Source: an uncultured bacterium
Lineage (GTDB): Bacteria > Zhuqueibacterota > QNDG01 > DSAB01
Direction: 5' to 3'
Assembly (NCBI GenBank): GCA_964614115.1
Contig: CAZTKR010000001.1
Location: 10,614 to 74,613 of the forward strand
DNA: 64,000 nt
A model generated the notes under the pieces. It saw only the letters and a list, made by a program, of their open reading frames with translations, was not told the origin of the DNA and did no database searches. The position numbers and the translations under genes are program-made. Positions 7,847 through 24,973 of this stretch are shown here, piece after piece. Position 1 is the stretch's first letter, and every line of letters starts with the position of its first letter.

Positions 7847-7890
7847 TGTATATTTTTTAGATGTTGTCCTATTCTTCTATTGGAGGGAGT

Positions 7891-9603
7891 ATGAAATATC
7901 GTTGCCTGATGCGGGTTTTTTTCCTCGTTCTTCTCGCCGGCTGTGGGAAGAAGGACCCCATCGTAGCCGTCATCGGCAATAAGCAGGTGATCACTTTAAA
8001 CGAGTTCAAGGAGGATTTTTCCCGAGGCAAGAGCACGGAAGCGGTGGAAACCTCCTCGCCCTCGAGATTGCTGAATCATCTGAATCATATGATCGACACA
8101 CGGATAAAAATCCTGGAAGCCTATGAGATGGGGCTGGAGCGCGACTCTGCCGTCGTTGCAAAGGTCGTCCCGACACGCACACAGGCGCTGTTCAACAGGC
8201 TCTATGAGACCGAGATCGTCGATCACATGGTGAAAGAAACGGATATACGGGCGTATTTTGCTCATATGGGCAAGGAGGTCGTGATCCGTAAGATCACGTT
8301 TCGTTGCGAAGCCGATTCGTCCTCGGAGGAAGAGGCAAAGAGGAAGGCTCAAGACGTTTTAAGTCAAGCCCGAGCCGGAGAGGATTTTGCAGCACTGGCC
8401 AGGACGCATTCCGAGGATAGGGGATCGGCCATGAACGGGGGCTTGATGAATCCTCTGGTATGGACGCAACAGAACGATCCCGTGAAGGATAGGGCGTTTA
8501 CGATGCAGGAAGGTGATATCTCTGGACTCATCAAGGACAACACAGGATATCACATCATCAAGGTCGAGAAGATACGGGAGAAAGAGCGTGATCCTTATCA
8601 CGAGGTTCGTGAGGAGATTCGTCAGAACCTGATTGCAGCAAATCGGCAGGCCATTGCCGAAGAAGCCAGAGCATACTGGTCAAAAGTAATGGAAGATAAA
8701 GGAGTGTTTTGGAATGAGGAGGAGTTGGAGTACCTTGTGCAGAGACTAAAGTCGGTAAAGGACCCGAGAAGGGATATCCTCGCAGACAGCTTGGATGGGC
8801 TGAGTCCCGAGGAAAAAGAGAAAGTTCTGGTACAGCACAAGGAGGGACAGATTACAGTTCAGGATTTTGAAGAGAAAATCCAGGAATATCCACAGCATAC
8901 GCGGTTTCCCATTGATCAGACGAGTGGTCTCAAACGTCTTTTTGAGCAATGGTTGATGAGAAGAATGTTGCTGGAAAAGGCCGTCAGTAAAGGTCTGGAA
9001 AAAGACAAAGCCGTCGTCGAAGAACTGCAAAAGACCACGGAGCAGGAAATCGTTCGTGTTCTGATGGACCGCTTTGTCATCGGGGAGATAAAACCCAGGG
9101 AAGAAGCGCTGAAGCTCTATTATGAAAGAAACAGAGAGGAAAAATACTCTGATCCCGAGAAAGTGAATGTTCAGGAAGTCATGGTTAAGGACGAGGACAT
9201 GGCCAACCGGATTGCTCAATGGGCCAAAGCGGGAAGAGATTTTAGCAAGCTGGCCCGGGATTATACGGAAAGACCGGGGTATAAGAACAAGGACGGCATT
9301 CTGGGTTTTTTCGCTCAGGGACGATGGGGTGACATGGGTGAGAAGGCATTCACCCTTAAGCCCGGCGAGGTAGCCGGACCCATCCCTTTGAAGAACGACC
9401 GTGGATTTTCCGTGATCAAGCTGCTAGAGCAAAGGCCATCCCAGGTGAAACCCTATGATGAAGTGAAAAGCCGGGTTCGGAATGATTTGATCAGAGAGAT
9501 TAAAAAGGATCGGGAAGAACAGTGGTTGGAAGAAAAGAGAAACAAATACAGTGTGAAGACATATGAAAACGTTTTACGAAAAGCGATACCCAGAGCATCG
9601 TAA
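7891..9603 (+). CDS. Periplasmic parvulin-type peptidyl-prolyl isomerase and chaperone, SurA/PpiD family (lipoprotein)
   Basis: Lipoprotein signal MKYRCLMRVFFLVLLAGC. Parvulin domain GYHIIKVEK plus chaperone-like flanking regions. RBS GGAGGG 5 nt before the ATG at 7891. The ORF track begins at 7861 with an N-terminal extension. Confidence 0.75.
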   Translation: MKYRCLMRVFFLVLLAGCGKKDPIVAVIGNKQVITLNEFKEDFSRGKSTEAVETSSPSRLLNHLNHMIDTRIKILEAYEMGLERDSAVVAKVVPTRTQALFNRLYETEIVDHMVKETDIRAYFAHMGKEVVIRKITFRCEADSSSEEEAKRKAQDVLSQARAGEDFAALARTHSEDRGSAMNGGLMNPLVWTQQNDPVKDRAFTMQEGDISGLIKDNTGYHIIKVEKIREKERDPYHEVREEIRQNLIAANRQAIAEEARAYWSKVMEDKGVFWNEEELEYLVQRLKSVKDPRRDILADSLDGLSPEEKEKVLVQHKEGQITVQDFEEKIQEYPQHTRFPIDQTSGLKRLFEQWLMRRMLLEKAVSKGLEKDKAVVEELQKTTEQEIVRVLMDRFVIGEIKPREEALKLYYERNREEKYSDPEKVNVQEVMVKDEDMANRIAQWAKAGRDFSKLARDYTERPGYKNKDGILGFFAQGRWGDMGEKAFTLKPGEVAGPIPLKNDRGFSVIKLLEQRPSQVKPYDEVKSRVRNDLIREIKKDREEQWLEEKRNKYSVKTYENVLRKAIPRAS

Positions 9604-10495
9604 GTGTCGAGCCATCGGAAGAGGCGCTTCCATCGCTTCGATCTGTGTGATAATTCTCCTCCTGTTGAAATGTGGAGTCCGCGTGGATGACGACGAAGTC
9701 GTGGCCCGGGTCGGTAATGCTGTTTTAACGAAAGAGGATATGAAGCAACGGATGAACTGGGAGGGTGTAGGCCCAGACCAGGAAAGCGATTTCGTCGACC
9801 GGTGGGTTGATCGCGAACTCCTCTATCAAGAGGCCAAGAGATTGGGATTAGACAAGGCTGTGGAGCTTCAGTGGGAAATCGAGCTCGTGGAGAAAGAATA
9901 CGTGATCCAAAAGCTGCTGGAGAGGACATTCATCCAGGAGGTCGAGATCACGGAAGAGGAAATCGCCGACTATTACGAGAGACACAAGGATGAATTCCAG
10001 GTGGATGAAGAGGAGGTGCGGGCACTCCATATTTTGAAGGATACCAAAGCCGAGGCCGATATCGCACGTCAGGAAATCATAGCAGGTAAACCGTTTGAAA
10101 CTGTGGCCAGGGAATCCTCCGAGGGCATCTTCAGGGAGAGAGGAGGGGATATGGGTTTTTTCCGAAGGGGGGATGTCATACCGGAGATAGAGCGGTATGC
10201 TTTCCGTCTTTCCGAAGGGCGGGTATCACGGGTTTTTCAGAGCAATTATGGTTTTCATATCATCAAGGTCATAAAGAAGCGTGCCAGGGGAGACTATCGC
10301 GACTTATCGGAAGTCCGGGATGATATATTCCATCAACTCCGCGTGAATAAAGAACGTTCTGCCTACTATGATCTCCTGTTCCAACTGCAGAACAGGACTA
10401 AGGTGTCCGTCACGATCCCCAGGAGTCTGGAAGAGACGCAGGATACACTGACTGTGCAAACCGAAGAAAATGATTTAGAGGAGTCGGAAAAGTGA
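9563..10495 (+). CDS. Parvulin-type peptidyl-prolyl isomerase (PrsA/SurA-like)
   Basis: 310 aa. Single parvulin domain (NYGFHIIKVIKKRARGD) after a SurA-like N-terminal region. Hydrophobic N-terminus. It overlaps the previous gene's end by 41 nt, so the exact start is uncertain. Confidence 0.7.
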   Translation: MKTFYEKRYPEHRKCRAIGRGASIASICVIILLLLKCGVRVDDDEVVARVGNAVLTKEDMKQRMNWEGVGPDQESDFVDRWVDRELLYQEAKRLGLDKAVELQWEIELVEKEYVIQKLLERTFIQEVEITEEEIADYYERHKDEFQVDEEEVRALHILKDTKAEADIARQEIIAGKPFETVARESSEGIFRERGGDMGFFRRGDVIPEIERYAFRLSEGRVSRVFQSNYGFHIIKVIKKRARGDYRDLSEVRDDIFHQLRVNKERSAYYDLLFQLQNRTKVSVTIPRSLEETQDTLTVQTEENDLEESEK

Positions 10496-11787
10496 GGAAA
10501 CCATTTTTTATCGTCCTATGTGCTGGTTTAGCCCTCTTTTTTTCATGGGCGTCCCATGCCCAGGAAGTTCTGGAGGGAGTCGTTGCTGTCGTTGGGGATG
10601 AGATCATTCTTCGTACCCAACTCATCCAGGCGGCGCAGGGATTCGCCGTGCAGATGGGCGTCAATCCCAGGAACCAGCCCCAGGAGTTCGAAAAGATCAA
10701 GGACAACATTCTTCAGAATTTGATAAATGAGAAGGTTCTTCTGGCCAAGGCTATCGAGGATACGGTTACTGTGGATGATCAGCAGGTGGAGTCTGCCCTG
10801 GAGTCGCGGATTGAGGAGCTGACCCAGCAATTAGGCTCCAAGGAGCGCGTGGAGGCGTACTTTGGCTCACCCATCCGCAAGATCAAGAGAGATTACAGAG
10901 ATGAGATTCGTAAACAGCTCATCGTCAGCACGGTTCAGCAGGAGAAACTAAGGGACATCAAGGTGTCGCGGAGTGAAGTCATATCGTTCTATGAAACCAT
11001 GAAAGATAGCCTGCCCGATATGAAATCCAGAGTCAAGCTTCGTCACATTCTGATCGATGTGAGTCCAGGTGAGCGTGCAAAACAGCAAGCCATGGAGCGC
11101 ATGCGGGAGATTCAGGAACGTATCCGTCAGGGAGAGGATTTTGCGGAATTAGCCAAGTTGTACTCCGAAGACCCGGGAACCGCATCCAACGGAGGAGCCT
11201 TGGGCTTTGTGGAGAAGGGCACGTTGTTTCAGTCCTTCGAAGAAACGGCGTTTCAGATGGAACCCGGCGAGATTTCCGATGTAGTGGAGACACCGGTGGG
11301 ATTGCATCTCATACGGTTGATCGAGAAGCGAGGCGACAAGGCGAGCATGCGCCATATCCTGATTCGTGTCGAGGTGACCTCTGTGGATGAGAATGCCGTG
11401 CTGGACACCTTGAGACGTATTCGTGAAAGAGTGTTGGCCGGAGAATCGTTTGAAGACCTGGCCCAAAAATATTCCCAGGATGAGACAACAAAAGACGTGG
11501 GAGGCGACTTGGGATGGCTGCCGCCTGACCAACTCCAGATCGAGGCTTTTAAGAGTGCCATCGACACACTCCAGACAGATGAGATCACCCGTCCGTTTAA
11601 AACACAGTTTGGCTATCATATCGTAAAGCTGGAAGGAAGAAGAGGCGCGCGAGAAGTGTCTCTGGAAGAAGACTGGGAACAGGTGGAATACTGGGCACTG
11701 AGTACGAAGAGACAGAAAGTGATAGAAGAGTGGATTGCGGAATTAAGAAAGAAGATCTACATAAAAATCAATGAGGACATGTTGTAG
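10492..11787 (+). CDS. surA: Chaperone SurA (two parvulin domains)
   Basis: 431 aa. Signal peptide. SurA N-domain (VVAVVGDEIILRTQL). Two PPIase domains (GLHLIRLIEKR and GYHIVKLEGRR). GTG start preceded by GAGGAG. Confidence 0.8.
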   Translation: MRKPFFIVLCAGLALFFSWASHAQEVLEGVVAVVGDEIILRTQLIQAAQGFAVQMGVNPRNQPQEFEKIKDNILQNLINEKVLLAKAIEDTVTVDDQQVESALESRIEELTQQLGSKERVEAYFGSPIRKIKRDYRDEIRKQLIVSTVQQEKLRDIKVSRSEVISFYETMKDSLPDMKSRVKLRHILIDVSPGERAKQQAMERMREIQERIRQGEDFAELAKLYSEDPGTASNGGALGFVEKGTLFQSFEETAFQMEPGEISDVVETPVGLHLIRLIEKRGDKASMRHILIRVEVTSVDENAVLDTLRRIRERVLAGESFEDLAQKYSQDETTKDVGGDLGWLPPDQLQIEAFKSAIDTLQTDEITRPFKTQFGYHIVKLEGRRGAREVSLEEDWEQVEYWALSTKRQKVIEEWIAELRKKIYIKINEDML

Positions 11788-13988: not shown

Positions 13989-15215
13989 TCAGCGGCTGGA
14001 TTTTAACTTCAGACTCCGCGTCAGTCTCTGGAATGCTTTCCGGTAAGAATCGGGATTCTTCCAATCCGTGAAATCTCCGACAACACGCGTCTGGCAGATT
14101 TCCGAAGCCCACTCTTCGTCGGATGCCATCACGGCCTCATCCAGACGAATGGGGAACAGGATCCTCTGTTTTCGTCCTTCCTCCTGCCTTAACGCTGTCT
14201 CGACTTCGCGCTTCACCCACGATCTGTGAATCATGCTCTTGGAGAGCACCAACACGAGTTTGTCATAGCCATGTTTGGACTTATGGCTGGACCCTGTCAT
14301 GTCGCCACCCGTTTTCATATCCTCCGGACAAAGCCAGCAGCGAATGCCCTTTTCCTGCAAATCACCGTGAATTTTCTGGGCAAGCACATCGTCTTCATGG
14401 GAATAGCCGATAAAACAGGTGTAGTACGGTATGGGCTTGTCCGAGGGCTTTGATGGCAGGACCTTGATTATCCTGTCTGGAAGGCCGACGCCTCTCAGAA
14501 AAGAGATCGGCAATCTGCCGGATCGGCACAGTGTGTCGTGATCGATGATGCTGGGCCCGTGATGGATGCAGGACGCCAGGTTTTTCACGCGGCTCAAATC
14601 GGTGAATCCGAAGACGGTCTTATACAGGCGCACCTGTTTGAAATTGGTGTTGTGCAGAAGTGATTCTGTCAGATCGGCCCCACGGAGATTGGCTCTGCTG
14701 AAATCGGTCTTGCTCAGATCGGCTCCGTAGAGATCGGCTTCGGTAATATCGGACTCGCAGAGGTCGGCTCCTTTGAGCGTGGCTTTACAGAGGATGGCGG
14801 AACGGAGACGGGTCCCGCTCAGGTTGGCTTGGTCCAGGACTGCGCCGCTGAGATCGGCTTCGATAAGGTTGGCTCCGCCCAGGTCGGCCTCGCTAAGGTC
14901 GGCATTGCGGAGATTGGCCAGGCTAATGTAAGCACCACTTAGGTAAGCCCCGTTCATAACGGCACCACTGAGACAGGCTCCGCTGAGATAGGTACCGTTG
15001 AGGTCGGCTCTGCTGAGATCGGCCTCCCGGAGGTCGGCACCGCTGAGATCGGCCTCGCTGAGATTGGCTTCGCTGAGGTCGGCCTTGACGAGCTCGGCCA
15101 TACGGAGATTGGCCAGATTGAGATCGGCCTTCTTACCCTCACTTCCGCCAGACATTACCCATTGCTTATGTTTTTCAAGGATTTTTTCAAGCTGTGGTGT
15201 TGTGGATTTTTTCAT
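13989..15215 (-). CDS. Pentapeptide-repeat protein fused to a C-terminal TIR domain
   Basis: 408 aa. Residues ~25-215 form about 35 consecutive pentapeptide repeats (ADLSE/ANLSE/ADLRE...). Residues ~265-400 show TIR hallmarks: YTCFIGYSHEDD (beta-A/alpha-A), GIRCWL, KTGGD (BB-loop), LVLVLSKSMIHRSWVKREVETAL (conserved Glu). No recognisable Shine-Dalgarno sequence. AT-rich non-coding DNA follows. Confidence 0.85.
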   Translation of the reverse strand: MKKSTTPQLEKILEKHKQWVMSGGSEGKKADLNLANLRMAELVKADLSEANLSEADLSGADLREADLSRADLNGTYLSGACLSGAVMNGAYLSGAYISLANLRNADLSEADLGGANLIEADLSGAVLDQANLSGTRLRSAILCKATLKGADLCESDITEADLYGADLSKTDFSRANLRGADLTESLLHNTNFKQVRLYKTVFGFTDLSRVKNLASCIHHGPSIIDHDTLCRSGRLPISFLRGVGLPDRIIKVLPSKPSDKPIPYYTCFIGYSHEDDVLAQKIHGDLQEKGIRCWLCPEDMKTGGDMTGSSHKSKHGYDKLVLVLSKSMIHRSWVKREVETALRQEEGRKQRILFPIRLDEAVMASDEEWASEICQTRVVGDFTDWKNPDSYRKAFQRLTRSLKLKSSR

Positions 15216-15693
15216 GTCAGGCTTCAGAAATTATTAAAAAGGAATATTTTTAGCGACGTCGCGCTTTGCCTAGACAAAGCATTCCAAAGCTGTAACCCTC
15301 TCCCTGGTGCACAGAAATCCGCATTTTGTCTATTACTAAAAAGAAGGATATCAGAATACAACATAAAAAATTTACAATAAAAAGCAAGGACTAATGAGTG
15401 GATTGCTGCCTCGACGATCAGTGGGTTTTCCATTTGATCTTTTGGGAAAGATTCTTATATTACGCGTGCGATGCAAAAACCGACGGACTTAGAGTAATCC
15501 TCTGACGGATGGAAATTACAGTCCAGCCCCCAGGACGGGCCTTGACCTATGCGCATCAGCGGCATCGTCTTCTGCTCTATCTTCCAAGAATCACTCCCGA
15601 ACAGGTGTTTGTCCCGTCCTTTTACTAGGATGACACGATGAAAATATACGTACTCTCCCCGAGCTTTGGAATCGAGAAATAAGGAATATCAGG

Positions 15694-18126
15694 ATGCCTA
15701 TTCGCAAGCTCTTCCTCTTCGCTCTCCTGTTTTTTTGTGTCTTCTCGAATACCCGTGGCCAAGAAGCAGAGATGAGCGAACTGTCGGACCTTACCGTTGA
15801 AAAGATCATGCGGGATCCCCGGTGGATGGGTGTATCGCCCAGTGAAATCACCTGGTCGGAAGACGGGCAACGCATTTACTTCAACTGGAATCCCGAAAAA
15901 GCCGAGAGTGACTCCTTATACGTGGTGTCCAGAAATGGCGGTACACCCCGTAAGGTGAGTTTGGCCGAGAGGAGAGTGCTCCCTGCCAGTCAGGGCGATT
16001 ATGACCGGTCCTGGTCCCGAAAAGTGTATGAGAAGGACGGCGACATTTTCCTCCTGGACATCAAGCGATGGAGGATCAGGCAGATCACCCGCACGGTCGA
16101 GGTGGAACGAAATCCCCGTTTTACCGCCGACGGGAAAAAGGTCACGTATATCAAAGACCGGAATTTATATCTCTGGCATATCGATAACGGAGAGATCGTT
16201 CAGCTCACCGATTTCCGTGACGGTTTTCAGAAATCCGAGAAAGAAGAGCCAAAGATCGACCAGGAGAAATGGCTGAAAAAAGAAGAAGCAGAGCTTGTCG
16301 GGTATTTAAAAAAGCAAGCAGATCTGAAAAAGTTATCCGAAAAAAACAAGAAAGCCGTGTTGCCCGAGAGACCGAAGAAGATCTTCGTCGAGGATAAAGT
16401 AGTGCAGGATGTGCAGTTGAGCCCCGGCGAGCGCTTCATCACCTTCGTCCTAAATAAACCGGCCAGGCAGGCCAAGCGGACGATGGTCCCCAATTATATC
16501 CATGAGACGGGATTCACAGAGGTCCTTGATGCCCGTACCAAGGTGGGAAGCACCCAGAGTACGTACCAGCTGGGCGTGTACGATATAAAGGAAGATACTG
16601 TCCTGTTCGTTTGCACAGAAGACATTCCGGGAATCTACGATCGGCCTGCGTATCTGGAAACGTATGATGAAGCGGGCTCAGAGGAGGACGCGCAAGAGAA
16701 ATCCCAAGAGACGGAAAAATCCGAACAGAAAAGTGCCAGGGAGGTGATGTTTCCCGACCTGGTCTGGGCAGAGGACGAAGACTGTGCCGTCGTTTCTGTG
16801 ATGGCTCAGGATCACAAGGATCGATGGATCATGCTCCTGGAGCCGGATTCGGCCAGGCTGAGGCTCCTGGATCGCCAGCATGATGACGCCTGGATCGGCG
16901 GACCGGGCATACGGCGTTGGCGGCGGCAGGGGCCCGTCCTCGGCTGGATGCCCGACGGCAGGCGGGTTTGGTTCCAGTCGGAAGCATCAGGCACCTCCCA
17001 TCTCTACACCGTCGATATCCAGACGGGTGAGAAAACGGCCCTGACCAGCGGCCCTTTCGAGGTTTATACGCCCCGAATCTCTCGGGATAAAAAACAATGG
17101 ACATTCACGTCCAACGAGGCGCATCCCGGCGAGCGGCATTTTTACCGCATGCCCATCGATGGCGGAAAGGCTGTCCAGACAACCCGGATGGAGGGTTCGA
17201 ATCAGGTTTTTCCATCACCCGACGGGAAGATGCTGGCCGTCTGTCATTCGGTCAGCAACCGGCCTTGGGAGCTGTTCATCATGGAGAACAAGACCGGCGC
17301 TCCAGCGAAACGCATAACCCATTCCCTGAGCCCGGAGTTCCTGTCGTATCCATGGCGCCAGCCCGACGTGATCACGTTTCCGGCCCGCGATGGAGCACGC
17401 GTCCATGCGCGTCTGTACCGTCCAGCGAATCCAGAGCCGGGGGGCCCGGCCGTGATCTTTGTTCACGGTGCGGGATACCTTCAGAACGCCCACAAGTGGT
17501 GGAGCCACTACTTTCGGGAATACATGTTCCACAACCTTCTAGTCGATCATGGCTACACAGTATTGGATATCGACTACCGGGCCAGCGCCGGCTACGGCCG
17601 GGACTGGCGAACGGCCATTTACCGGCACATGGGGGGGAAAGACCTGACGGATCAGGTCGATGGCGCCCGGTTCCTGGTCGAAGCATGCCACGTGGACCCG
17701 AAACGAATCGGCATATACGGCGGGTCGTACGGCGGGTTTATCACCCTGATGGCCCTGTTTACCGAACCTGATGTGTTTGCGGCGGGTGCGGCACTTCGAC
17801 CCGTGACAGACTGGGCGCATTACAATCACTGGTACACGTCCAACATCCTGAACGTGCCCTACGCCGACAGCTTGGCCTACGTGCGGAGCTCGCCCATCTA
17901 CCATGCCGAGGGGCTGAAGGGCGCCCTTTTGATGTGCCACGGCATGGTGGATGTGAATGTTCATTTTCAGGATGTCGTCCGGTTGTCCCAGCGGCTCATC
18001 GAACTGGGAAAGGAGAACTGGGAACTGGCCGTTTATCCGGTGGAGGGACATGGGTTCCGGGAGCCCAGCAGCTGGACCGATGAGTATAGACGCATCTTCA
18101 CGTTGTTCGAGGAGAACCTGAAATAA
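15694..18126 (+). CDS. S9 family serine peptidase (prolyl oligopeptidase/dipeptidyl peptidase-like) with N-terminal TolB-like beta-propeller
   Basis: 810 aa. Signal peptide. Propeller repeats. C-terminal alpha/beta-hydrolase domain with nucleophile motif GGSYGGF and Asp/His downstream. A Lys/Glu-rich linker is present. Confidence 0.9.
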   Translation: MPIRKLFLFALLFFCVFSNTRGQEAEMSELSDLTVEKIMRDPRWMGVSPSEITWSEDGQRIYFNWNPEKAESDSLYVVSRNGGTPRKVSLAERRVLPASQGDYDRSWSRKVYEKDGDIFLLDIKRWRIRQITRTVEVERNPRFTADGKKVTYIKDRNLYLWHIDNGEIVQLTDFRDGFQKSEKEEPKIDQEKWLKKEEAELVGYLKKQADLKKLSEKNKKAVLPERPKKIFVEDKVVQDVQLSPGERFITFVLNKPARQAKRTMVPNYIHETGFTEVLDARTKVGSTQSTYQLGVYDIKEDTVLFVCTEDIPGIYDRPAYLETYDEAGSEEDAQEKSQETEKSEQKSAREVMFPDLVWAEDEDCAVVSVMAQDHKDRWIMLLEPDSARLRLLDRQHDDAWIGGPGIRRWRRQGPVLGWMPDGRRVWFQSEASGTSHLYTVDIQTGEKTALTSGPFEVYTPRISRDKKQWTFTSNEAHPGERHFYRMPIDGGKAVQTTRMEGSNQVFPSPDGKMLAVCHSVSNRPWELFIMENKTGAPAKRITHSLSPEFLSYPWRQPDVITFPARDGARVHARLYRPANPEPGGPAVIFVHGAGYLQNAHKWWSHYFREYMFHNLLVDHGYTVLDIDYRASAGYGRDWRTAIYRHMGGKDLTDQVDGARFLVEACHVDPKRIGIYGGSYGGFITLMALFTEPDVFAAGAALRPVTDWAHYNHWYTSNILNVPYADSLAYVRSSPIYHAEGLKGALLMCHGMVDVNVHFQDVVRLSQRLIELGKENWELAVYPVEGHGFREPSSWTDEYRRIFTLFEENLK

Positions 18127-18206
18127 ATCTCATGGAATACGATGAGACCAGAGATCGGTCATTATAGGATTCAAGGTATCTTTGTGTATTCTGGATTTCG
18201 AATGAT

Positions 18207-18225
18207 GGGTTATCATGATAGGAGG
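18207..18225. promoter_or_regulatory. Palindromic box GGGTTATCATGATAGGAGG (core TTATCATGATA), copy 1
   Basis: An 11/12 match to the perfect palindrome TTATCATGATAA, located at the 5' end of amidohydrolase paralog 1. A 17/19-nt match lies at 21394-21412. Confidence 0.5.
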
Positions 18226-19975
18226 AAGGAGCATGATGTTTAAATCTCCGGTTGGATTTCAGAAAAGAATGCGGATTGGAATTGCCGTCCTATGGATGCT
18301 GGTTTTTCTCATTCCCTGTCACGGCGCTATCGGGAGCGGCGAGTTCGGGAATGTGTATGCCATCAAGGCCGGGAAAATCATCACCGTCACGGGCGGCATC
18401 ATCGAAAACGGGACGATTCTGGTGCGAGACGGCATCATACAGGCCGTGGGTCAGAACATTGTCATCCCACCGGACGCCGAGATTGTGGCGGCCGATACGA
18501 TGTGGGTGTATCCCGGGTTGATCGATGCACACACGTCCCTGGCCCTGAAGCTGCCGACGAAGAAGAGCGACGAGGCTCAGGAACAACAGACACAGACGCC
18601 GGCCAGCAGCGAAGGCAAGGCTTCCCCGGAATTACTGAAATCGGATCGATGTGCCGCCGATCTGTTGAATCCCAAAGACACCAAGATCGCCAAGGTGCGC
18701 CAGGCCGGTGTGACCACCGTGCTGACCATTCCCACCAGCGGGATTTTCATCGGTCAGAGCGCTTTGATCAACCTCTTTGGCGACACGGCCGAAGAGATGA
18801 TACTCAAATCGCCCGTGGCCATGCATCTGGGCTATCAGCGGCAGTCGGGGGTCTATCCGTCCACACTTTTCGGCGTCATCGCGTATCAAAGGCAGACGTT
18901 CCTGGATGCCCAGCACCATCAGCTTCTCTGGGATCGATACGAGAAGCAGAAGGCGGGATGGCGGCGTCCGCTGCCCGATAAATCTCTGGATGCGCTGATA
19001 CCTGTTCTGGAAGGAGATCTGCCCATCATCATCTCGGCCAACAAGGAAAACGAGATGAAGCGGGCCGTCCGTCTGGCCGAGGAGTTCGGATTGAATTACA
19101 TGATCAGCGGTGCCACCGAAGGGTGGCGAGTCGTGGATCTTTTAAAGGCCCAGCAGAAACCGATGCTGGTCAGCCTGAATTTCCCCAAGCCCAAGGACGT
19201 GACGGGTTATGCCTTCAAGCTCAAGGTAAAAGGGCCCGAAAAGGAGAAACCCGACGAAAAGAAGGCAGAGTCGAAGAAGGAGAAAGAAGGCAAAGAGAAG
19301 AAGGAGGAAGAAGATCCCGAGAAGAAAGAAATTTATGCCAATGCCAGCGTGCTCCACAGGGCCGGGATTACGTTCGCGTTCACATCACAAGGCCTGAAAA
19401 AGCCCGATGAATTCATGAAGAATGCGGCCAAGGCCGTGGAGCACGGCCTTGCCAAGGAAGAAGCCTTGAAGGCCATGACCATCAACCCGGCGACCATTTT
19501 CGGCGTGGCCGATCAGGTGGGCAGCATCGAAGAAGGCAAGATCGCCAACCTGGTCATCACGACAGGGGATCTGTTCGATGAGAAGAACAAGGTCAAGTGG
19601 GTCTTTATCGACGGCCATAAGATCGACGTGGAGGAGGCCAGGAAAAAGCCCGATGAGGAACCTGCCGTGGATGTGACGGGAACCTGGGAGATGATGGTCA
19701 CCACCGAGATGGGGGACATATCGGCTACCGTGACCCTGGCACAGACGGGTTCCGAGGTAACCGGTACGTTCAAGAGCGAAATGGGAACGTCGGACATCAC
19801 AGACGGGACAATCAGCGGCAGCGACATCGAATTTAGCGTCACGCTGCCCGTCATGGATCAGCCCAGGGAGTTGGTTTTCATCGGAACCGTGGAGGGAGAT
19901 ACGATGGAGGGCAGTCTCGATCTGGGCGCCATGGGCACGGCCGAGTGGAAGGCCACCCGTCCGGGCTGGGAGTGA
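18215..19975 (+). CDS. Secreted amidohydrolase-superfamily protein (COG1228-like), paralog 1, degenerate metal site, extra C-terminal beta-rich domain
   Basis: Signal peptide (the real start may be ATG 18233, behind AGGAGGAAGGAG). Amidohydrolase fold motifs are present, but the first-strand motif reads DAHTSL instead of HxH. It carries a KE-rich low-complexity insert and a ~100-aa C-terminal extension. Confidence 0.8.
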   Translation: MIGGRSMMFKSPVGFQKRMRIGIAVLWMLVFLIPCHGAIGSGEFGNVYAIKAGKIITVTGGIIENGTILVRDGIIQAVGQNIVIPPDAEIVAADTMWVYPGLIDAHTSLALKLPTKKSDEAQEQQTQTPASSEGKASPELLKSDRCAADLLNPKDTKIAKVRQAGVTTVLTIPTSGIFIGQSALINLFGDTAEEMILKSPVAMHLGYQRQSGVYPSTLFGVIAYQRQTFLDAQHHQLLWDRYEKQKAGWRRPLPDKSLDALIPVLEGDLPIIISANKENEMKRAVRLAEEFGLNYMISGATEGWRVVDLLKAQQKPMLVSLNFPKPKDVTGYAFKLKVKGPEKEKPDEKKAESKKEKEGKEKKEEEDPEKKEIYANASVLHRAGITFAFTSQGLKKPDEFMKNAAKAVEHGLAKEEALKAMTINPATIFGVADQVGSIEEGKIANLVITTGDLFDEKNKVKWVFIDGHKIDVEEARKKPDEEPAVDVTGTWEMMVTTEMGDISATVTLAQTGSEVTGTFKSEMGTSDITDGTISGSDIEFSVTLPVMDQPRELVFIGTVEGDTMEGSLDLGAMGTAEWKATRPGWE

Positions 19976-20039
19976 GGTTAGAGGCATGCAAGTCCTCATC
20001 CCGTCACGATCACGAGTAATAATCGTTATGGAGGTATAG

Positions 20040-21383
20040 ATGATGTTAAATGTACGATGGCGAAGGAGACTCATCGCCGGGCTGACTGTGATGGTCATTA
20101 TGATCGTTATTCCCCTGCACGGTCAGCTCAAAGTTGAAGGAGAGGGAGACGCCCTCTTGATCAAGAATGCTACGGTGATGACCGTGACTCAGGGAACCAT
20201 CGAGAACGGTTCCATCCTCATACGCAACGGGAAGATCGCATCGGTGGGTTCCGGTGTGGCCGGACCCGATGGGGTCCGGGTCATCGATGCCAAGGGACGA
20301 TATGTCATGCCGGGCATCATCGATTCCCATTCCCATATGTGCAGCGAGGGCGGCATCAACGAGATGACGGGCACGGTGACGCCTGAGGTGAACGTGGAGG
20401 ATATCCTCCGGCACGACGATATTGGCATGCAGCGTGCCCTGGCCGGAGGCGTGACTGCCCTGAATACGCTTCACGGGAGCGCCAATGTCATCGGCGGCCG
20501 GAATGCCGTAATCAAGCTCAAGTTCGGGAAACCCATGGAAGAGCTGATGATACCCGGCGCCATGTCCGGGATAAAATTTGCCCTGGGCGAGAATCCCAAG
20601 CGTTCCAATTTTCGTGATCCCCGGGGAAGCCGGTTTCCCATCTCCCGCATGGGAGTGATGCATAAAGTCCGGGAAGCCTTTACCCAGGCGAAAGAATACA
20701 TGCGCGCATGGGAAGAGTACGAGCTGAAAAAGCAGGGGAAGATCAAGCAGGCCCGATGGGAGAAGAAACGGGGTCCGATTCCCCCCAAGCGCGACCTTCG
20801 CCTGGAAGCGCTGGCCGATATCCTGCGGGGAAAACTCACCATCATCTGTCACGGGTACCGGGCCGATGAGATGCTGGCCCTGATGGAGCTGGGCGATGAG
20901 ATGGGATTCAAGGTAGGTTCGTACGAGCACTGTCTGGAGGGATACAAGATTGTGGAGGAACTGGTAGAGCACGACGTCATCGCTTCGATATTTGCCGATA
21001 TGTGGGCCTACAAGATGGAAGCCTTTGACGCCATTCCGTACAACGCAGCACTCTTGACAGAGCACGGCGTCGTGGTTACCATCAATTCGGACAGCAACGA
21101 GCGAATACGCCGTTTGTACCAGGAGGCGGCCAGGACAATCAAGTTCGGAATGTCCGAGGAGGATGCCCTGAAGACCATCACCCTGAACCCTGCCAAGATG
21201 CTGCACATCGATGATCGCGTGGGGAGCATCGAGAAGGGCAAGGACGCAGACCTGGCCATTTTCAACGGACACCCTTTCAGCGTGTATTCTAAGGTGGAGA
21301 TGACGCTGATCGAAGGGGAGATTTATTTCGACCTGAGTACGGCCAACACGGTTGCAAAGACACTGGCGGAATCATCGGACTAA
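20040..21383 (+). CDS. Secreted amidohydrolase-superfamily protein (COG1228-like), paralog 2, canonical HxH
   Basis: 447 aa. Signal peptide. VMPGIIDSHSHM metal-binding motif plus downstream His/Asp ligands. GGAGG RBS. Confidence 0.85.
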   Translation: MMLNVRWRRRLIAGLTVMVIMIVIPLHGQLKVEGEGDALLIKNATVMTVTQGTIENGSILIRNGKIASVGSGVAGPDGVRVIDAKGRYVMPGIIDSHSHMCSEGGINEMTGTVTPEVNVEDILRHDDIGMQRALAGGVTALNTLHGSANVIGGRNAVIKLKFGKPMEELMIPGAMSGIKFALGENPKRSNFRDPRGSRFPISRMGVMHKVREAFTQAKEYMRAWEEYELKKQGKIKQARWEKKRGPIPPKRDLRLEALADILRGKLTIICHGYRADEMLALMELGDEMGFKVGSYEHCLEGYKIVEELVEHDVIASIFADMWAYKMEAFDAIPYNAALLTEHGVVVTINSDSNERIRRLYQEAARTIKFGMSEEDALKTITLNPAKMLHIDDRVGSIEKGKDADLAIFNGHPFSVYSKVEMTLIEGEIYFDLSTANTVAKTLAESSD

Positions 21384-21393
21384 TGGCCCTCTC

Positions 21394-21412
21394 GGATTAT
21401 CATGATAAGAGG
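21394..21412. promoter_or_regulatory. Palindromic box GGATTATCATGATAAGAGG (perfect 12-bp palindrome TTATCATGATAA at 21397-21408), copy 2
   Basis: Seen in the sequence about 65 nt upstream of the paralog 3 start. It matches the box at 18207-18225. Confidence 0.5.
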
Positions 21413-21473
21413 TAGACATATCCATCTCAAAGATATATATCAGAACCCGAAAATGGAATACAAGAGGATGACT

Positions 21474-22790
21474 ATGAAAATAAAATCGATCCATCGTTTT
21501 AGACGAGGCATTTTTCTCGTTGTATGGCTCCTGGGAATGTTGGGAACTGCCGCGGCCGGGGACGTGGTCATCACCAATGCGACCCTCGTCACTGTGACGG
21601 GAGGAACCGTCGAAAACGGCACGCTCCTGATTCAAGATGATCGAATCGTGGCCCTGGGAACCGATGTGGACGTACCGCCCGGTGTTGAGGTCATCGACGC
21701 CCGGGGCTTGTATGTGTATCCCGGCATGATAGACGCCACCACATCATTGGGATTGTACGAAGTGGGAGCCGTCCGTGCGACGGTGGATGCGTCAGAGATG
21801 GGAACGTACAACCCCCATATCGAGGCGGCCGTGGCCATCAATCCCCACAGCGTTCACATACCCATCAGCCGCGTGAACGGAGTCACCTCGGCCCTGGTGG
21901 TCCCCGGAGGAGCCGTCATCTCGGGACAGAGCGCTCTCATCAATCTCAACGGCTGGACGCCGGAAGAGATGGTGGTGAAGGCTCCGGTGGGTATTCACAT
22001 TCAGTTCCCCCGCCTGCCCCGGCAGGACGATGAGAGCGGGCAGAGACCGTCGTCCCAGAAGAAGAAAGACACCAAGGAGAGGACAGAGAAGGAAATCAAG
22101 GCGTTGATGGACGTCTTCAAGAAGGCCAAGCGGTATGCGGCCACCTGGGAGGCCTACATGAAATCGATGAAGCCGCCGGCCCCTGCGAAAGACCTGATGC
22201 TGGAAGCCCTGGTACCGGTGGTCAAGCGGGAATTGCCCGTCATCGTTTCCGTGCATGTGGAAAAGGACATCAAGAATGCAGTGGATTTCGTGGACACCCT
22301 GAACATCAAGGCCATATTCCATGGTGTGTACGAGGGGTGGAAGGTGGCTCCCTTGCTCAGCAAGAAAGGCATCCCTGTTCTGGTGGGCCCGGTTATGGTC
22401 AGTCCGGGACCCGAGGATCCGTATGATGCCATCTATGCCAACGCGGGCGTGCTCCACAAGGCAGGCGTGAAGATTGCGTTTGTCACGGAAAGCGCTCCCG
22501 ATGTGCGCAGCCTGCCCTATCATGCGGGCATGGCGGCGGCGTTCGGATTGCCCAGGGAGCAGGCATTGAAAGCGGTGACGATTTATCCTGCAGAGATATT
22601 CGGCGTTGCCGATAAGCTGGGCAGCCTGGAGGTCGGCAAGCTCGCCAATGTGATCGTCACCGACGGCGATCCCTTGGAGATGCGGACACAGATAAAGCAT
22701 GTGTTCATCGCCGGCCAGAAGATCCCCATGACCAGCAAGCATAAGGCTCTTTATGAGACGTTTCGGAAACGACCGGCTGCGAAGGAGTGA
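21474..22790 (+). CDS. Secreted amidohydrolase-superfamily protein (COG1228-like), paralog 3, HxH motif lost
   Basis: Signal peptide MTMKIKSIHRFRRGIFLVVWLLGMLGTAAAG. Motif VYPGMIDATTSL (no His). Closest paralog is paralog 1. I place the start at ATG 21474 (AGAGG 6 nt upstream). The track ORF begins at 21402. Confidence 0.8.
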   Translation: MKIKSIHRFRRGIFLVVWLLGMLGTAAAGDVVITNATLVTVTGGTVENGTLLIQDDRIVALGTDVDVPPGVEVIDARGLYVYPGMIDATTSLGLYEVGAVRATVDASEMGTYNPHIEAAVAINPHSVHIPISRVNGVTSALVVPGGAVISGQSALINLNGWTPEEMVVKAPVGIHIQFPRLPRQDDESGQRPSSQKKKDTKERTEKEIKALMDVFKKAKRYAATWEAYMKSMKPPAPAKDLMLEALVPVVKRELPVIVSVHVEKDIKNAVDFVDTLNIKAIFHGVYEGWKVAPLLSKKGIPVLVGPVMVSPGPEDPYDAIYANAGVLHKAGVKIAFVTESAPDVRSLPYHAGMAAAFGLPREQALKAVTIYPAEIFGVADKLGSLEVGKLANVIVTDGDPLEMRTQIKHVFIAGQKIPMTSKHKALYETFRKRPAAKE

Positions 22791-23802
22791 ATCGGAGGCC
22801 AAGGAGACAGTCATCAGAAGCATCGTTCTCTGCGGCGTGCTCATCACCCTTTTTATCTCGTGTGCATCTTTTGTGACGAGAAGGCATCCTCTGGCGGATC
22901 GGGTTGTGTGCATCGATCCGGGGCATGGTGGGACGGCCGCGTTCGACAGTTACCGCGTCGGTCCCGCCGGAGAGCGCGAAGAATGGATTGATTTGCGCGT
23001 GGCCATAGCCCTTAAGGAGATGCTGGAGGTCCGAGGCGCCAGAGTCCTCATGACACGAACCGAGGATGTCGATGTGCCCTTGAAAGACAGGGCCTTCCTG
23101 GCCGTAACGGGCGGCGCCGATGTCTTTCTCTCCATCCATCACAACGCAACCGCGGATTCTTCTGTCAACTTTCCCATCATTTATTTTCACGGGAATGCCT
23201 CGGAGAATCGGGCCAGTGTGCAGTTGGGCCGTCTGGTGGCCCGCCGTCTTTCGGAAGCGCTGTTCGATGGACACACACCGTTGAGCCTGGTGTCGGATCA
23301 CACGATCTTTCCAGAGGCTGGCACGGCGGTCTTGAGGCATTCCTATGGGATTCCGGGTATCATCGGGGAAGCCTCTTTCTTTACCCATCCCGATGAAGAG
23401 GAACGCCTGAAAGACGATGCGTACAACCGGAAGGAGGCCGCGGCTTACGTCATGGCTCTGGAAGAATTCTTTTCCCACCGCATCCCCCCAATCCATGAGA
23501 AGTATTCCAACGGGCGGATTCCTCCCTTCGCCGTGTTCCAGGAAGCGGAACGCATGGATCCCGTGGCCAGGCGCTGGAAAGACGATTTCTACGAAGGTGA
23601 ACGCCTGTTTCAGGAAGGGCACACCGAAACACTCCAGCACGCTTACGATCTGTTCACCCGTTCGGCGAAGTCCTTCCCCGACTCGTGGGTCGCCGGAAAG
23701 TGTCATCTGTATCGCTGGAAAATACTGCGTTTGCTGAATAAGACGGAGGAGGCCGATCTGGAGAGAAAACGCGTTGAGGAGTATTATATCGATTTGAAAT
23801 AA
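22753..23802 (+). CDS. N-acetylmuramoyl-L-alanine amidase (Amidase_3, AmiC-like) lipoprotein with C-terminal helical/TPR-like region
   Basis: Lipobox LFISC. Amidase_3 Zn ligands in VVCIDPGHGG...SIHHNA...E. The exact start is uncertain because it overlaps the upstream gene by 38 nt. Confidence 0.8.
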   Translation: MRRFGNDRLRRSESEAKETVIRSIVLCGVLITLFISCASFVTRRHPLADRVVCIDPGHGGTAAFDSYRVGPAGEREEWIDLRVAIALKEMLEVRGARVLMTRTEDVDVPLKDRAFLAVTGGADVFLSIHHNATADSSVNFPIIYFHGNASENRASVQLGRLVARRLSEALFDGHTPLSLVSDHTIFPEAGTAVLRHSYGIPGIIGEASFFTHPDEEERLKDDAYNRKEAAAYVMALEEFFSHRIPPIHEKYSNGRIPPFAVFQEAERMDPVARRWKDDFYEGERLFQEGHTETLQHAYDLFTRSAKSFPDSWVAGKCHLYRWKILRLLNKTEEADLERKRVEEYYIDLK

Positions 23803-23890
23803 GAGATTTTTTTATTACTTTGATTTATGGCATGTCATGAGCCTGCGCCTTTTTTAAGCTCCTGTGAGAAGCAAAGGGAGGGAGAAAAAC

Positions 23891-24973
23891 ATGCCGTCCC
23901 AAGAAAAATCCAAGCAGCGGATAGCCCTTCACGCCGATAGTCGTCTCACCGTGTTCCTCTTGAGCATTCTGGTCATCATTGCCCTGGGATTCGTGCTCCA
24001 TCAGCTCCAGGCCATATTCAAACCGCTTCTGATTGCCGTGTTCCTCTCGTTCGTGTTCGAACCCATGGTGGACATCTTTACGAAAATAAAGATACCCAAA
24101 TTCTTAGCCTTCATCCTTTCGCTGATCATCGTGTTTGTGGTCATCGACCTGCTGGGCATGGTCATTTATGCGAACATCGCCGCATTCGTCGATGAGTTTC
24201 CCAAGTACCAGGACAAATTCAACGGGCTGTACACGCGAATCATCGGATTCTTGAGAATCCCCCACGAAGAGGTTCAAAACTACCTGGAAAACATCAAGTG
24301 GACAGAGCTGTGGCAGAAGGCATCCCTGACTCGAATACTCGGGTCTACGGTAGGATCGTTCGTGAATTTTCTGGCGAATCTTTTCCTGATTCTTTTATTC
24401 ACGGTATACATCGTCCTGGGCAGGACGCATTTTCTGATGAAGCTTCGTCGAGCCTTCGATGAGGAACGCACCTTAAAGGCGTATGACGTGTTTATCAACA
24501 TCAACATGGGCATGCAGAAGTATCTCGTGGCCAAGACGCTCATCAGCCTGGTAACGGGTGTGGTGGCGACGATTATCCTCCTGATTTTCGGAATCGAATT
24601 TGCCTTTGTGTGGGGTCTGTTGACGTTCGTACTCAACTTTATCCCCAACGTGGGGTCGATCATTGCCACTATTCCACCGGTTCTTGTGGCCTTCTTTCAG
24701 TACGGCTCCGTATTCCCGGGTGTTTGGGTCGTACTCCTGCTCCTGGCCAATCAGATGACTATGGGGAATCTGGTAGAGCCCCGTGTCATGGGCAAGAGCC
24801 TGAATCTGAGTCCTCTGGTCGTCATACTGTCGTTGATCTTCTGGGGATTCATCTGGGGGCCCATCGGTATGATCCTGGCCGTACCGATTTCCGTGACCAT
24901 TCAGATTATCTGTGCGAACATCGACTCGTTGAGACCGATCAGTGTTTTTATGGGAGGAGATATAGAGTCTTGA
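23891..24973 (+). CDS. AI-2E family transporter (PerM/YhhT-like permease)
   Basis: About 8 predicted TM helices with AI-2E family sequence features. I place the start at ATG 23891, behind GGAGGGAG. The track ORF begins at 23864. Confidence 0.85.
   Translation: MPSQEKSKQRIALHADSRLTVFLLSILVIIALGFVLHQLQAIFKPLLIAVFLSFVFEPMVDIFTKIKIPKFLAFILSLIIVFVVIDLLGMVIYANIAAFVDEFPKYQDKFNGLYTRIIGFLRIPHEEVQNYLENIKWTELWQKASLTRILGSTVGSFVNFLANLFLILLFTVYIVLGRTHFLMKLRRAFDEERTLKAYDVFININMGMQKYLVAKTLISLVTGVVATIILLIFGIEFAFVWGLLTFVLNFIPNVGSIIATIPPVLVAFFQYGSVFPGVWVVLLLLANQMTMGNLVEPRVMGKSLNLSPLVVILSLIFWGFIWGPIGMILAVPISVTIQIICANIDSLRPISVFMGGDIES

Follow-up and report, generated by a model that had tools for sequence, protein, structure and literature searches.

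Pseudo-enzyme subunits are a known phenomenon, and the amidohydrolase fold provides two instances of it. PyrC', the dihydroorotase-like protein of Pseudomonas aspartate transcarbamoylase, and the CRMP/DPYSL proteins of animals have lost their metal ligands and persist under selection, either as oligomer subunits without catalytic activity or as binding proteins. They belong to the dihydroorotase and dihydropyrimidinase branches and are cytoplasmic, and the partner of PyrC' is an unrelated enzyme. The Xaa-Arg/Lys and Xaa-Pro peptidases of COG1228 are single-gene homo-oligomers that are not known to have pseudo-enzyme partners. Here we analyzed a stretch of 64,000 nucleotides from an uncultured bacterium of the Zhuqueibacterota (GCA_964614115.1, contig CAZTKR010000001.1, positions 10,614 to 74,613; hereafter the window), in which three consecutive genes encode exported paralogs with the amidohydrolase fold. 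The window genes are termed W1, W2, and W3, and their ortholog clades S1, S2, and S3. In contrast to PyrC' and CRMP, two apparent pseudo-subunits (W1 and W3) stand here beside a presumably catalytic paralog of their own subfamily (W2), in a fixed, exported three-gene module. On balance the trio probably forms one exported enzyme complex, because its gene order is kept across several phyla and its genes are sometimes fused; W2 would be the catalytic subunit, and W1 and W3 would be non-catalytic paralogous subunits that stabilize W2 or shape its specificity.

The best solved relative by far is Protein Data Bank (PDB) entry 3OOQ, a structural-genomics entry of 10 chains titled 'amidohydrolase from Thermotoga maritima MSB8', whose function is unknown and which therefore gives no substrate for the trio. 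A docking benchmark counts it among the dihedral homomers (bioRxiv 10.64898/2026.08.06.736029). 3OOQ differs from the window proteins in having no signal peptide, its residue 7 aligning with residue 39 of W2, and in being a homo-oligomer of identical ligand-bearing chains, whereas the window encodes three diverged exported paralogs, two of them ligand-less. The COG1228 peptidases (Cc2672, Sgx9260b, and Sgx9260c) belong to the same superfamily, have the binuclear ligand pattern seen in W2, and share with the trio the Joint Genome Institute label 'imidazolonepropionase-like amidohydrolase', but their fold matches at a template modelling (TM) score of 0.54 only and the sequence similarity is remote and confined to terminal segments. 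In the literature on 3OOQ, amidohydrolase pseudoenzymes, non-catalytic subunits, and COG1228, we found no description of the trio, no S1-S2 fusions, and no function for 3OOQ-type proteins. Judged from that literature, a heteromeric architecture with two pseudo-enzyme paralogs has not been described for the amidohydrolase superfamily.

Three exported proteins of one fold

An initial annotation, made from the letters of the window, had proposed three same-strand open reading frames (ORFs) with signal peptides at 18215-19975, 20040-21383, and 21474-22790. All three are present on the plus strand at these coordinates and encode 586 (whole ORF), 447, and 438 amino acids (aa), respectively. For W1, ATG 18233 or 18236 is a likelier start than 18215; AGGAGG lies at 18220-18225, and public gene calls give 579 aa. 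W2 has GGAGG 5 nt upstream of its ATG, and the ORF of W3 opens at 21402, with AAGAGG 6 nt before ATG 21474. W1 and W2 are separated by 64 nt, W2 and W3 by 90 nt. No Rfam match was found in 15100-24000 at E up to 1, and a promoter and terminator consensus scan gave a signal not usefully above the shuffled expectation.

At each of the three N-termini, a hydrophobic stretch comes after a basic n-region. By a crude hydropathy rule (basic n-region plus hydrophobic stretch within the first 45 residues), which is not a trained predictor, about 95% of the full-length orthologs have such N-termini in S1, S2, and S3 alike. Export through the Tat pathway was dropped as a candidate, with twin-arginine-like motifs in fewer than 10% of orthologs.

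W1 is 42% identical to W3 and 31% identical to W2. All three belong to the amidohydrolase superfamily (Amidohydro_1/Amidohydro_3; (beta/alpha)8 barrel plus composite beta-sandwich) and pass the gathering cut-off of Pfam Amidohydro_1 (25 bits) with 60, 70, and 56 bits for W1, W2, and W3, respectively. In searches against solved structures, 3OOQ was ahead for each of them (E values in Table 1). W2 matches 3OOQ end to end over aa 39-428 and has every ligand motif in common with it; W1 and W3 also align with its fold from one end to the other, but lack these motifs. The motifs DxHSH, GxKxAxGENPKR, H-x-[HY]-RAD, EH, and the strand-8 D, together with end-to-end similarity, define what we call the 3OOQ-like subfamily, an informal grouping; W2 carries the whole set. 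We also modelled P0158, a natural homolog in which S1 and S2 are fused, with AlphaFold2. The order of strands and helices was the same in both halves of the model, and Foldseek matched it to 3OOQ at TM 0.88 with 38% identity, every other entry scoring 0.63 or below. On these grounds, the trio and 3OOQ make up a subfamily of their own.

The kinship to Xaa-Arg/Lys dipeptidases that had been proposed for the three proteins stands as a remote tie within the superfamily and is not supported as family membership. The scores for the NCBIfam model NF051886 (XaaProDiPepCaul) were 65.6, 64.2, and 58.7 bits against an equivalog cut-off of 500. The peptidase structures 3MTW (Cc2672), 3BE7 (Sgx9260b), and 2QS8 were matched at E 1e-5 to 1e-8 only, and in N- and C-terminal segments only. 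Imidazolonepropionase HutI (TIGR01224) was likewise rejected: its cut-off is 298 bits, and W1, W2, and W3 reached 48, 64, and 44. No NCBIfam model came near its cut-off for any of the three.

Ligand loss, selection, and ancestry

To map the metal site, ligand columns were assigned by alignment to 3OOQ and in a joint alignment of 363 sequences, with 120 orthologs per clade. W2 presents all six ligands of the binuclear subtype (HxH, Lys, His, His, and Asp), namely H97 and H99 in the HxH of strand 1, K179 in strand 4, H271 in strand 5, H297 in strand 6, and D351 in strand 8; K179 stands where binuclear amidohydrolases have their bridging lysine. At the same six columns, W1 has H, S, G, S, G, and Q, and W3 has T, S, Q, S, G, and E, so neither shows this ligand set. 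The motifs quoted in the initial annotation are exact (DSHSHM at aa 95-100 and ICHGYRA in W2, DAHTSL at aa 104-109 and IISANKE in W1, DATTSL at aa 87-92 in W3), and so are its claims that the first-strand HxH is canonical in W2 only, being altered to H, S in W1 and T, S in W3, and that further positions are changed, strands 4, 5, 6, and 8 having G, S, G, Q in W1 and Q, S, G, E in W3. In the S2 half of the P0158 model, HSH closes strand 1, the Lys falls inside strand 4, the HAHCY motif supplies a His at the end of strand 5, and the Asp is the last residue of strand 8.

The same division runs through the clades. H97, H99, K179, E184, H271, Y273, and H297 are present in 120/120 orthologs of S2, and D351 in 119/120. 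In S1 and S3 these ligand columns are substituted, and they are also variable. The first-His column of S1 holds H in just 63 of the 120 orthologs and its second-His column holds S, N, D, or T; at strand 5, S (26), Y (19), N (17), H (14), and Q (11) were counted, and T also occurs. The first-His column of S3 is occupied by D (53), G (30), S (14), A (6), or Y (6), with ADTEI, SGTEI, ASTSL, and other variants at the strand-1 motif, and its strand-8 column by N (51), G (23), L (13), R (9), or E (8). The strand-6 His column is Gly in 119/120 S3 and 116/120 S1 sequences; four canonical-looking S1 rows are S1-S2 fusion proteins. We also checked whether the His ligands might be present but shifted, which would have undone the claim of ligand loss. 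The His residues left close to the former sites, W1 H106 and W3 H263 and H283, are not conserved in their own clades, so a rescue by shifted ligands is untenable.

W1 and W3 are under purifying selection. The ratios of nonsynonymous to synonymous substitution rates (dN/dS) in Table 1 were obtained against a 92-97% identical relative (L089), for which neighbouring genes gave 0.06-0.19; against a 63-75% identical relative (L091), the ratios were 0.12, 0.09, and 0.08 for W1, W2, and W3, respectively. These values indicate that W1 and W3 are not decaying. The number of positions conserved in at least 90% of the 120 orthologs was 142 in S3, 136 in S2, and 75 in S1.

A neighbour-joining distance tree with 100 bootstraps, rooted on 3OOQ, recovered each clade as monophyletic (S1 97/100, S2 100/100, S3 100/100) and placed 3OOQ nearest to S2. 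S1 and S3 were sisters in 100/100 bootstraps, which bears out the expectation that the degenerate paralogs form a conserved clade. With S1 and S3 as sisters and 3OOQ nearest to S2, the simplest history suggested by the sequences would be that a paralog of an S2-like enzyme lost its metal site once and was then duplicated, giving rise to S1 and S3.

Gene order, fusions, and extra domains

A scan with an S3 profile, taking one genome per species, yielded 80 loci, in which ORFs were classed by clade-specific hidden Markov models. A locus was treated as informative if at least 3.6 kb of sequence precedes S3; of 56 such loci, 53 have exactly the order S1, S2, S3 on one strand. In the other three, S1 and S2 are fused (L039), S2 is split (L065), or S1 is not adjacent (L079), a 691-aa ORF on the minus strand being found upstream instead. 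When the look-up was reversed and started from S2 proteins on long contigs, the trio was found in 4/4 cases, with gene gaps of -4 to 107 nt. The degenerate copies thus essentially always lie beside a canonical one, as the initial annotation had proposed to check.

Most of the 80 loci belong to Acidobacteriota (Blastocatellia, Pyrinomonadaceae, Thermoanaerobaculia, and Aminicenantes); further carriers are Bacteroidota (Saprospiraceae, Chitinophagales, and the cultured Ekhidna sp. To15) and Gemmatimonadaceae. Several metagenome-assembled genomes (loci L001, L009, L016, L022, L024, L041, L055, and L060) are titled 'uncultured Clostridia', 'Eubacteriales', or 'Heliobacteriaceae'. Their trio is about 50% identical to the Acidobacteriota versions, and the labels look doubtful for these contigs.

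S1-S2 fusions were found in P0158 (956 aa), P0224, P0225, P0229, about 18 N-truncated proteins, and the ORF of L039 (6579-10007). Their source names (Acidobacteria, Blastocatellia, and Gemmatimonadales/Gemmatimonadetes) span at least two phyla. The layout consists of a single N-terminal signal peptide, a degenerate S1 half (e.g., DAHSDL or DAASGA), a low-complexity or disordered linker, and an S2 half that keeps DxHSH (HSH), begins at the start of mature S2, and has no signal peptide of its own. In L039, the C-terminal calycin barrel of S1 is retained between the S1 part and the S2 half; P0158 has only a remnant of the barrel, and P0224 and P0225 have a Gly/Arg-rich linker in its place. These two forms suggest that S1-S2 fusion arose more than once. 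For the AlphaFold2 model of P0158, the alignment was assembled with S2-only rows left out and S1-only rows on the S1 half. Over 956 residues, the mean predicted local distance difference test score (pLDDT) was 86 and the predicted TM score (pTM) was 0.84. As halves tumbling independently would cap pTM near 0.5, the S1 and S2 halves are confidently predicted to pack together.

W1 has two parts in addition to the common fold. The K/E-rich insert in one of its barrel loops comprises 34 residues (KGPEKEKPDEKK...EEDPEKKE), and this region is variable, differing in length, among S1 orthologs. The C-terminal domain was modelled as eight antiparallel strands in an up-and-down barrel. Foldseek matched it to the Cap15 cyclic-dinucleotide receptor (TM 0.65) and to the FABP and CRBP (fatty-acid- and retinol-binding) barrels, in a range of 0.5-0.65, and these matches place it in the calycin class. 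No Pfam family reached its threshold for this domain (best, GH43_C lipocalin-like, E 0.07), and a sequence search of the PDB gave no match. Its homologs comprise 2215 representatives at E up to 1e-3, most of them either secreted proteins of about 130 aa in which the module stands alone, or arrays of 2-8 copies. A barrel of this type also follows an M16 peptidase (P0493) and occurs with a penicillin-amidase fragment (P0402). Many S1 orthologs have two copies and some have none (L088), so the barrel is an accessory part of the system.

The features of the trio are listed in Table 1. Beyond the trio, the gene neighbourhood is not conserved; even the most frequent family of flanking genes occurs in just 14 of the 80 loci. 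The gene adjoining W3 at 22753-23802, first described as a cell-wall amidase, is one (Pfam Amidase_3, E 7e-30). Its annotated start overlaps the end of W3 by 38 nt (22753-22790, plus strand), and its N-terminus (…LFISCAS…) resembles a lipoprotein signal. It was rejected as a part of the module, as was the S9 peptidase gene at 15694-18126: an Amidase_3 gene lies near the trio in 0/80 loci and S9-like genes in just 3/80, so both are local neighbours of this lineage only. They recur beside the trio in L081, L089, and L090.

Elsewhere in the window, a minus-strand gene at 13989-15215 encodes a protein of 408 aa that joins pentapeptide repeats at the N-terminus (Pfam E 2e-49) to a C-terminal TIR_2 domain (E 4e-18), which may be defence-related; the same gene also adjoins the S9 peptidase gene in the related contig L089. 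Three consecutive plus-strand genes at 7861-11787 (580, 310, and 431 aa) all encode PPIC-type parvulin/SurA-like rotamase domains and make up a second tandem array of periplasmic paralogs in the window.

Table 1. Positions of the three genes and of their mapped parts within the window
Feature	Position	Strand	Remarks
W1 (clade S1)	18236..19975	+	Exported non-catalytic amidohydrolase-fold paralog; Amidohydro_1 60 bits; 3OOQ E 2e-35; dN/dS 0.12
W1 degenerate strand-1 motif DAHTSL	18524..18541	+	Replaces D-x-H-x-H
W1 K/E-rich low-complexity insert (aa 339-372)	19229..19330	+	Barrel loop; not in W2 or W3
W1 C-terminal calycin-like beta-barrel (aa 485-584)	19667..19966	+	AlphaFold2 pLDDT 89.7; Foldseek
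W2 (clade S2)	20040..21383	+	Exported canonical amidohydrolase, presumed sole catalytic subunit; 3OOQ E 1e-63; dN/dS 0.09
W2 strand-1 motif DSHSHM	20322..20339	+	HxH ligands H97, H99
W2 motif GIKFALGENPKR	20568..20603	+	K179, predicted fourth barrel strand; invariant in S2, common to 3OOQ
W2 ligands H271 (ICHGYRA), H297 (SYEHCLEG), D351 (TINSDSN)	20844..21098	+	Strands 5, 6, 8
W3 (clade S3)	21474..22790	+	Exported non-catalytic amidohydrolase-fold paralog; Amidohydro_1 56 bits; 3OOQ E 5e-46; dN/dS 0.09
W3 degenerate strand-1 motif DATTSL	21732..21749	+	Both His ligands lost

A heteromeric enzyme and its alternatives

The initial annotation had read the array as one canonical enzyme with two pseudo-enzyme-like partners instead of three redundant enzymes. 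Clade-wide ligand loss, dN/dS of 0.08-0.12, the order in 53/56 loci, and the fusions all agree with that reading. From here on we infer the physical association of the three proteins, their stoichiometry, the roles of W1 and W3, and the class of substrate. The complex would be located in the periplasm or outside the cell. W2 would do the chemistry at a binuclear-type metal site formed by the strand-1 HxH, the strand-4 Lys, the strand-5 and strand-6 His, and the strand-8 Asp. W1 and W3 would descend from one paralog that lost its metal site and was duplicated later, and would keep the barrel-plus-sandwich fold as non-catalytic subunits, probably in the positions that identical subunits take in homo-oligomeric 3OOQ. 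The passage from homo-oligomer to hetero-oligomer through diverged paralogs is a well-known route, and the ancestor may have been a homo-oligomer whose subunit positions were taken over in this manner. The contribution of W1 and W3 would likely be to stabilize W2, or to shape its access and specificity, and the calycin-like barrel of W1 may bind a small ligand or anchor the complex. The enzyme probably cleaves an amide or peptide-like bond of an external substrate by hydrolysis, in the service of nutrient scavenging. Hints at the substrate are ecological only, namely the presence of exported proteins in proteolytic soil phyla and the enrichment of COG1228 genes in Pyrinomonas, which its authors tie to growth on protein (PMC4644332).

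W1 and W3 could instead be free, soluble, exported proteins that bind the substrate or product of W2 in the old active-site pocket, and in W1 also in the barrel, so as to capture, deliver, or sequester it; they would then be functional partners of W2 without any stable complex. Their pockets are lined by polar non-ligand residues within a strongly conserved fold, the fold of the calycin-like barrel is of a class that typifies small-molecule binders, and conserved operon membership would be explained equally well. We nevertheless consider this unlikely: S1-S2 fusions in at least two phyla and the packing predicted at pTM 0.84 favour a fixed physical association, the closest structural relative, 3OOQ, is itself oligomeric, and the differences among orthologs in the former ligand columns speak against a single conserved binding site there. 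It is still more doubtful that all three proteins are active, in successive or parallel steps, with W1 and W3 using a different metal or a metal-independent mechanism. Such activity would fit the constraint on W1 and W3, which is as strong as that on W2, the Asp and Glu at the two His positions of many S3 orthologs, and the Glu of W3 at the strand-8 Asp position. However, every former ligand column is variable within S1 and S3, and this reading is disfavoured because no alternative catalytic set is conserved; W3 of the window has T and S where other S3 proteins have D and E, and the strand-6 His is replaced by Gly in 97-99% of S1 and S3. A lineage-specific tandem duplication, with W1 and W3 as decaying or neutral copies that have no joint function, might be read from the adjacency of the three paralogs and from a loss of catalytic residues that is expected of a decaying copy. 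The comparative data refute it, leaving it barely conceivable, since dN/dS is 0.08-0.12, the three clades are ancient and each monophyletic, the gene order is the same across several phyla, and none of the three reading frames is disrupted, each having a signal peptide and a ribosome-binding site.

Several observations weigh against a single exported complex of the three proteins. The alignment behind the P0158 model has just about 20 rows that span both halves. No S2-S3 or S1-S3 fusions were seen among the homologs, so it is synteny that links W3 to the other two. A Pyrinomonadaceae locus (L079, 8250-11212) has S2 and S3 without an adjacent S1, and the barrel, being absent from some S1 orthologs (L088), is not essential. 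The Asp and Glu that replace the two His in many S3 orthologs (ADTEI) could in principle bind another cation. No conserved neighbour in the 80 loci and no Rfam match in 15100-24000 hints at a substrate.

With the complex of catalytic W2 and non-catalytic W1 and W3 as the preferred reading, W2 is probably best expressed together with W1 and W3 for characterization, and the natural fusions show which subunits partner. Thousands of public proteins share the label 'amidohydrolase family protein' or 'imidazolonepropionase-like', and two in three proteins of the module cannot act as metal enzymes; predictions of their function, and screens for new enzymes among them, would fail. If the complex exists, the module would be a clean natural example of a 3OOQ-type homo-oligomer turned into a hetero-oligomer by duplication and loss of catalysis. 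The fuller proposal, to which we give about even credence, is an obligate exported heteromeric amidohydrolase whose catalytic subunit is held by two ancient pseudo-enzyme paralogs, one of them with a calycin-like barrel. A large share of the Acidobacteriota, Gemmatimonadota, and Bacteroidota of soils and sediments carries the module, and, if the proposal is true, this wide presence means that it could be a major uncharacterized extracellular enzyme for scavenging nitrogen or peptides. As it is common in abundant, poorly cultured soil phyla, its substrate would inform our understanding of extracellular organic nitrogen turnover.

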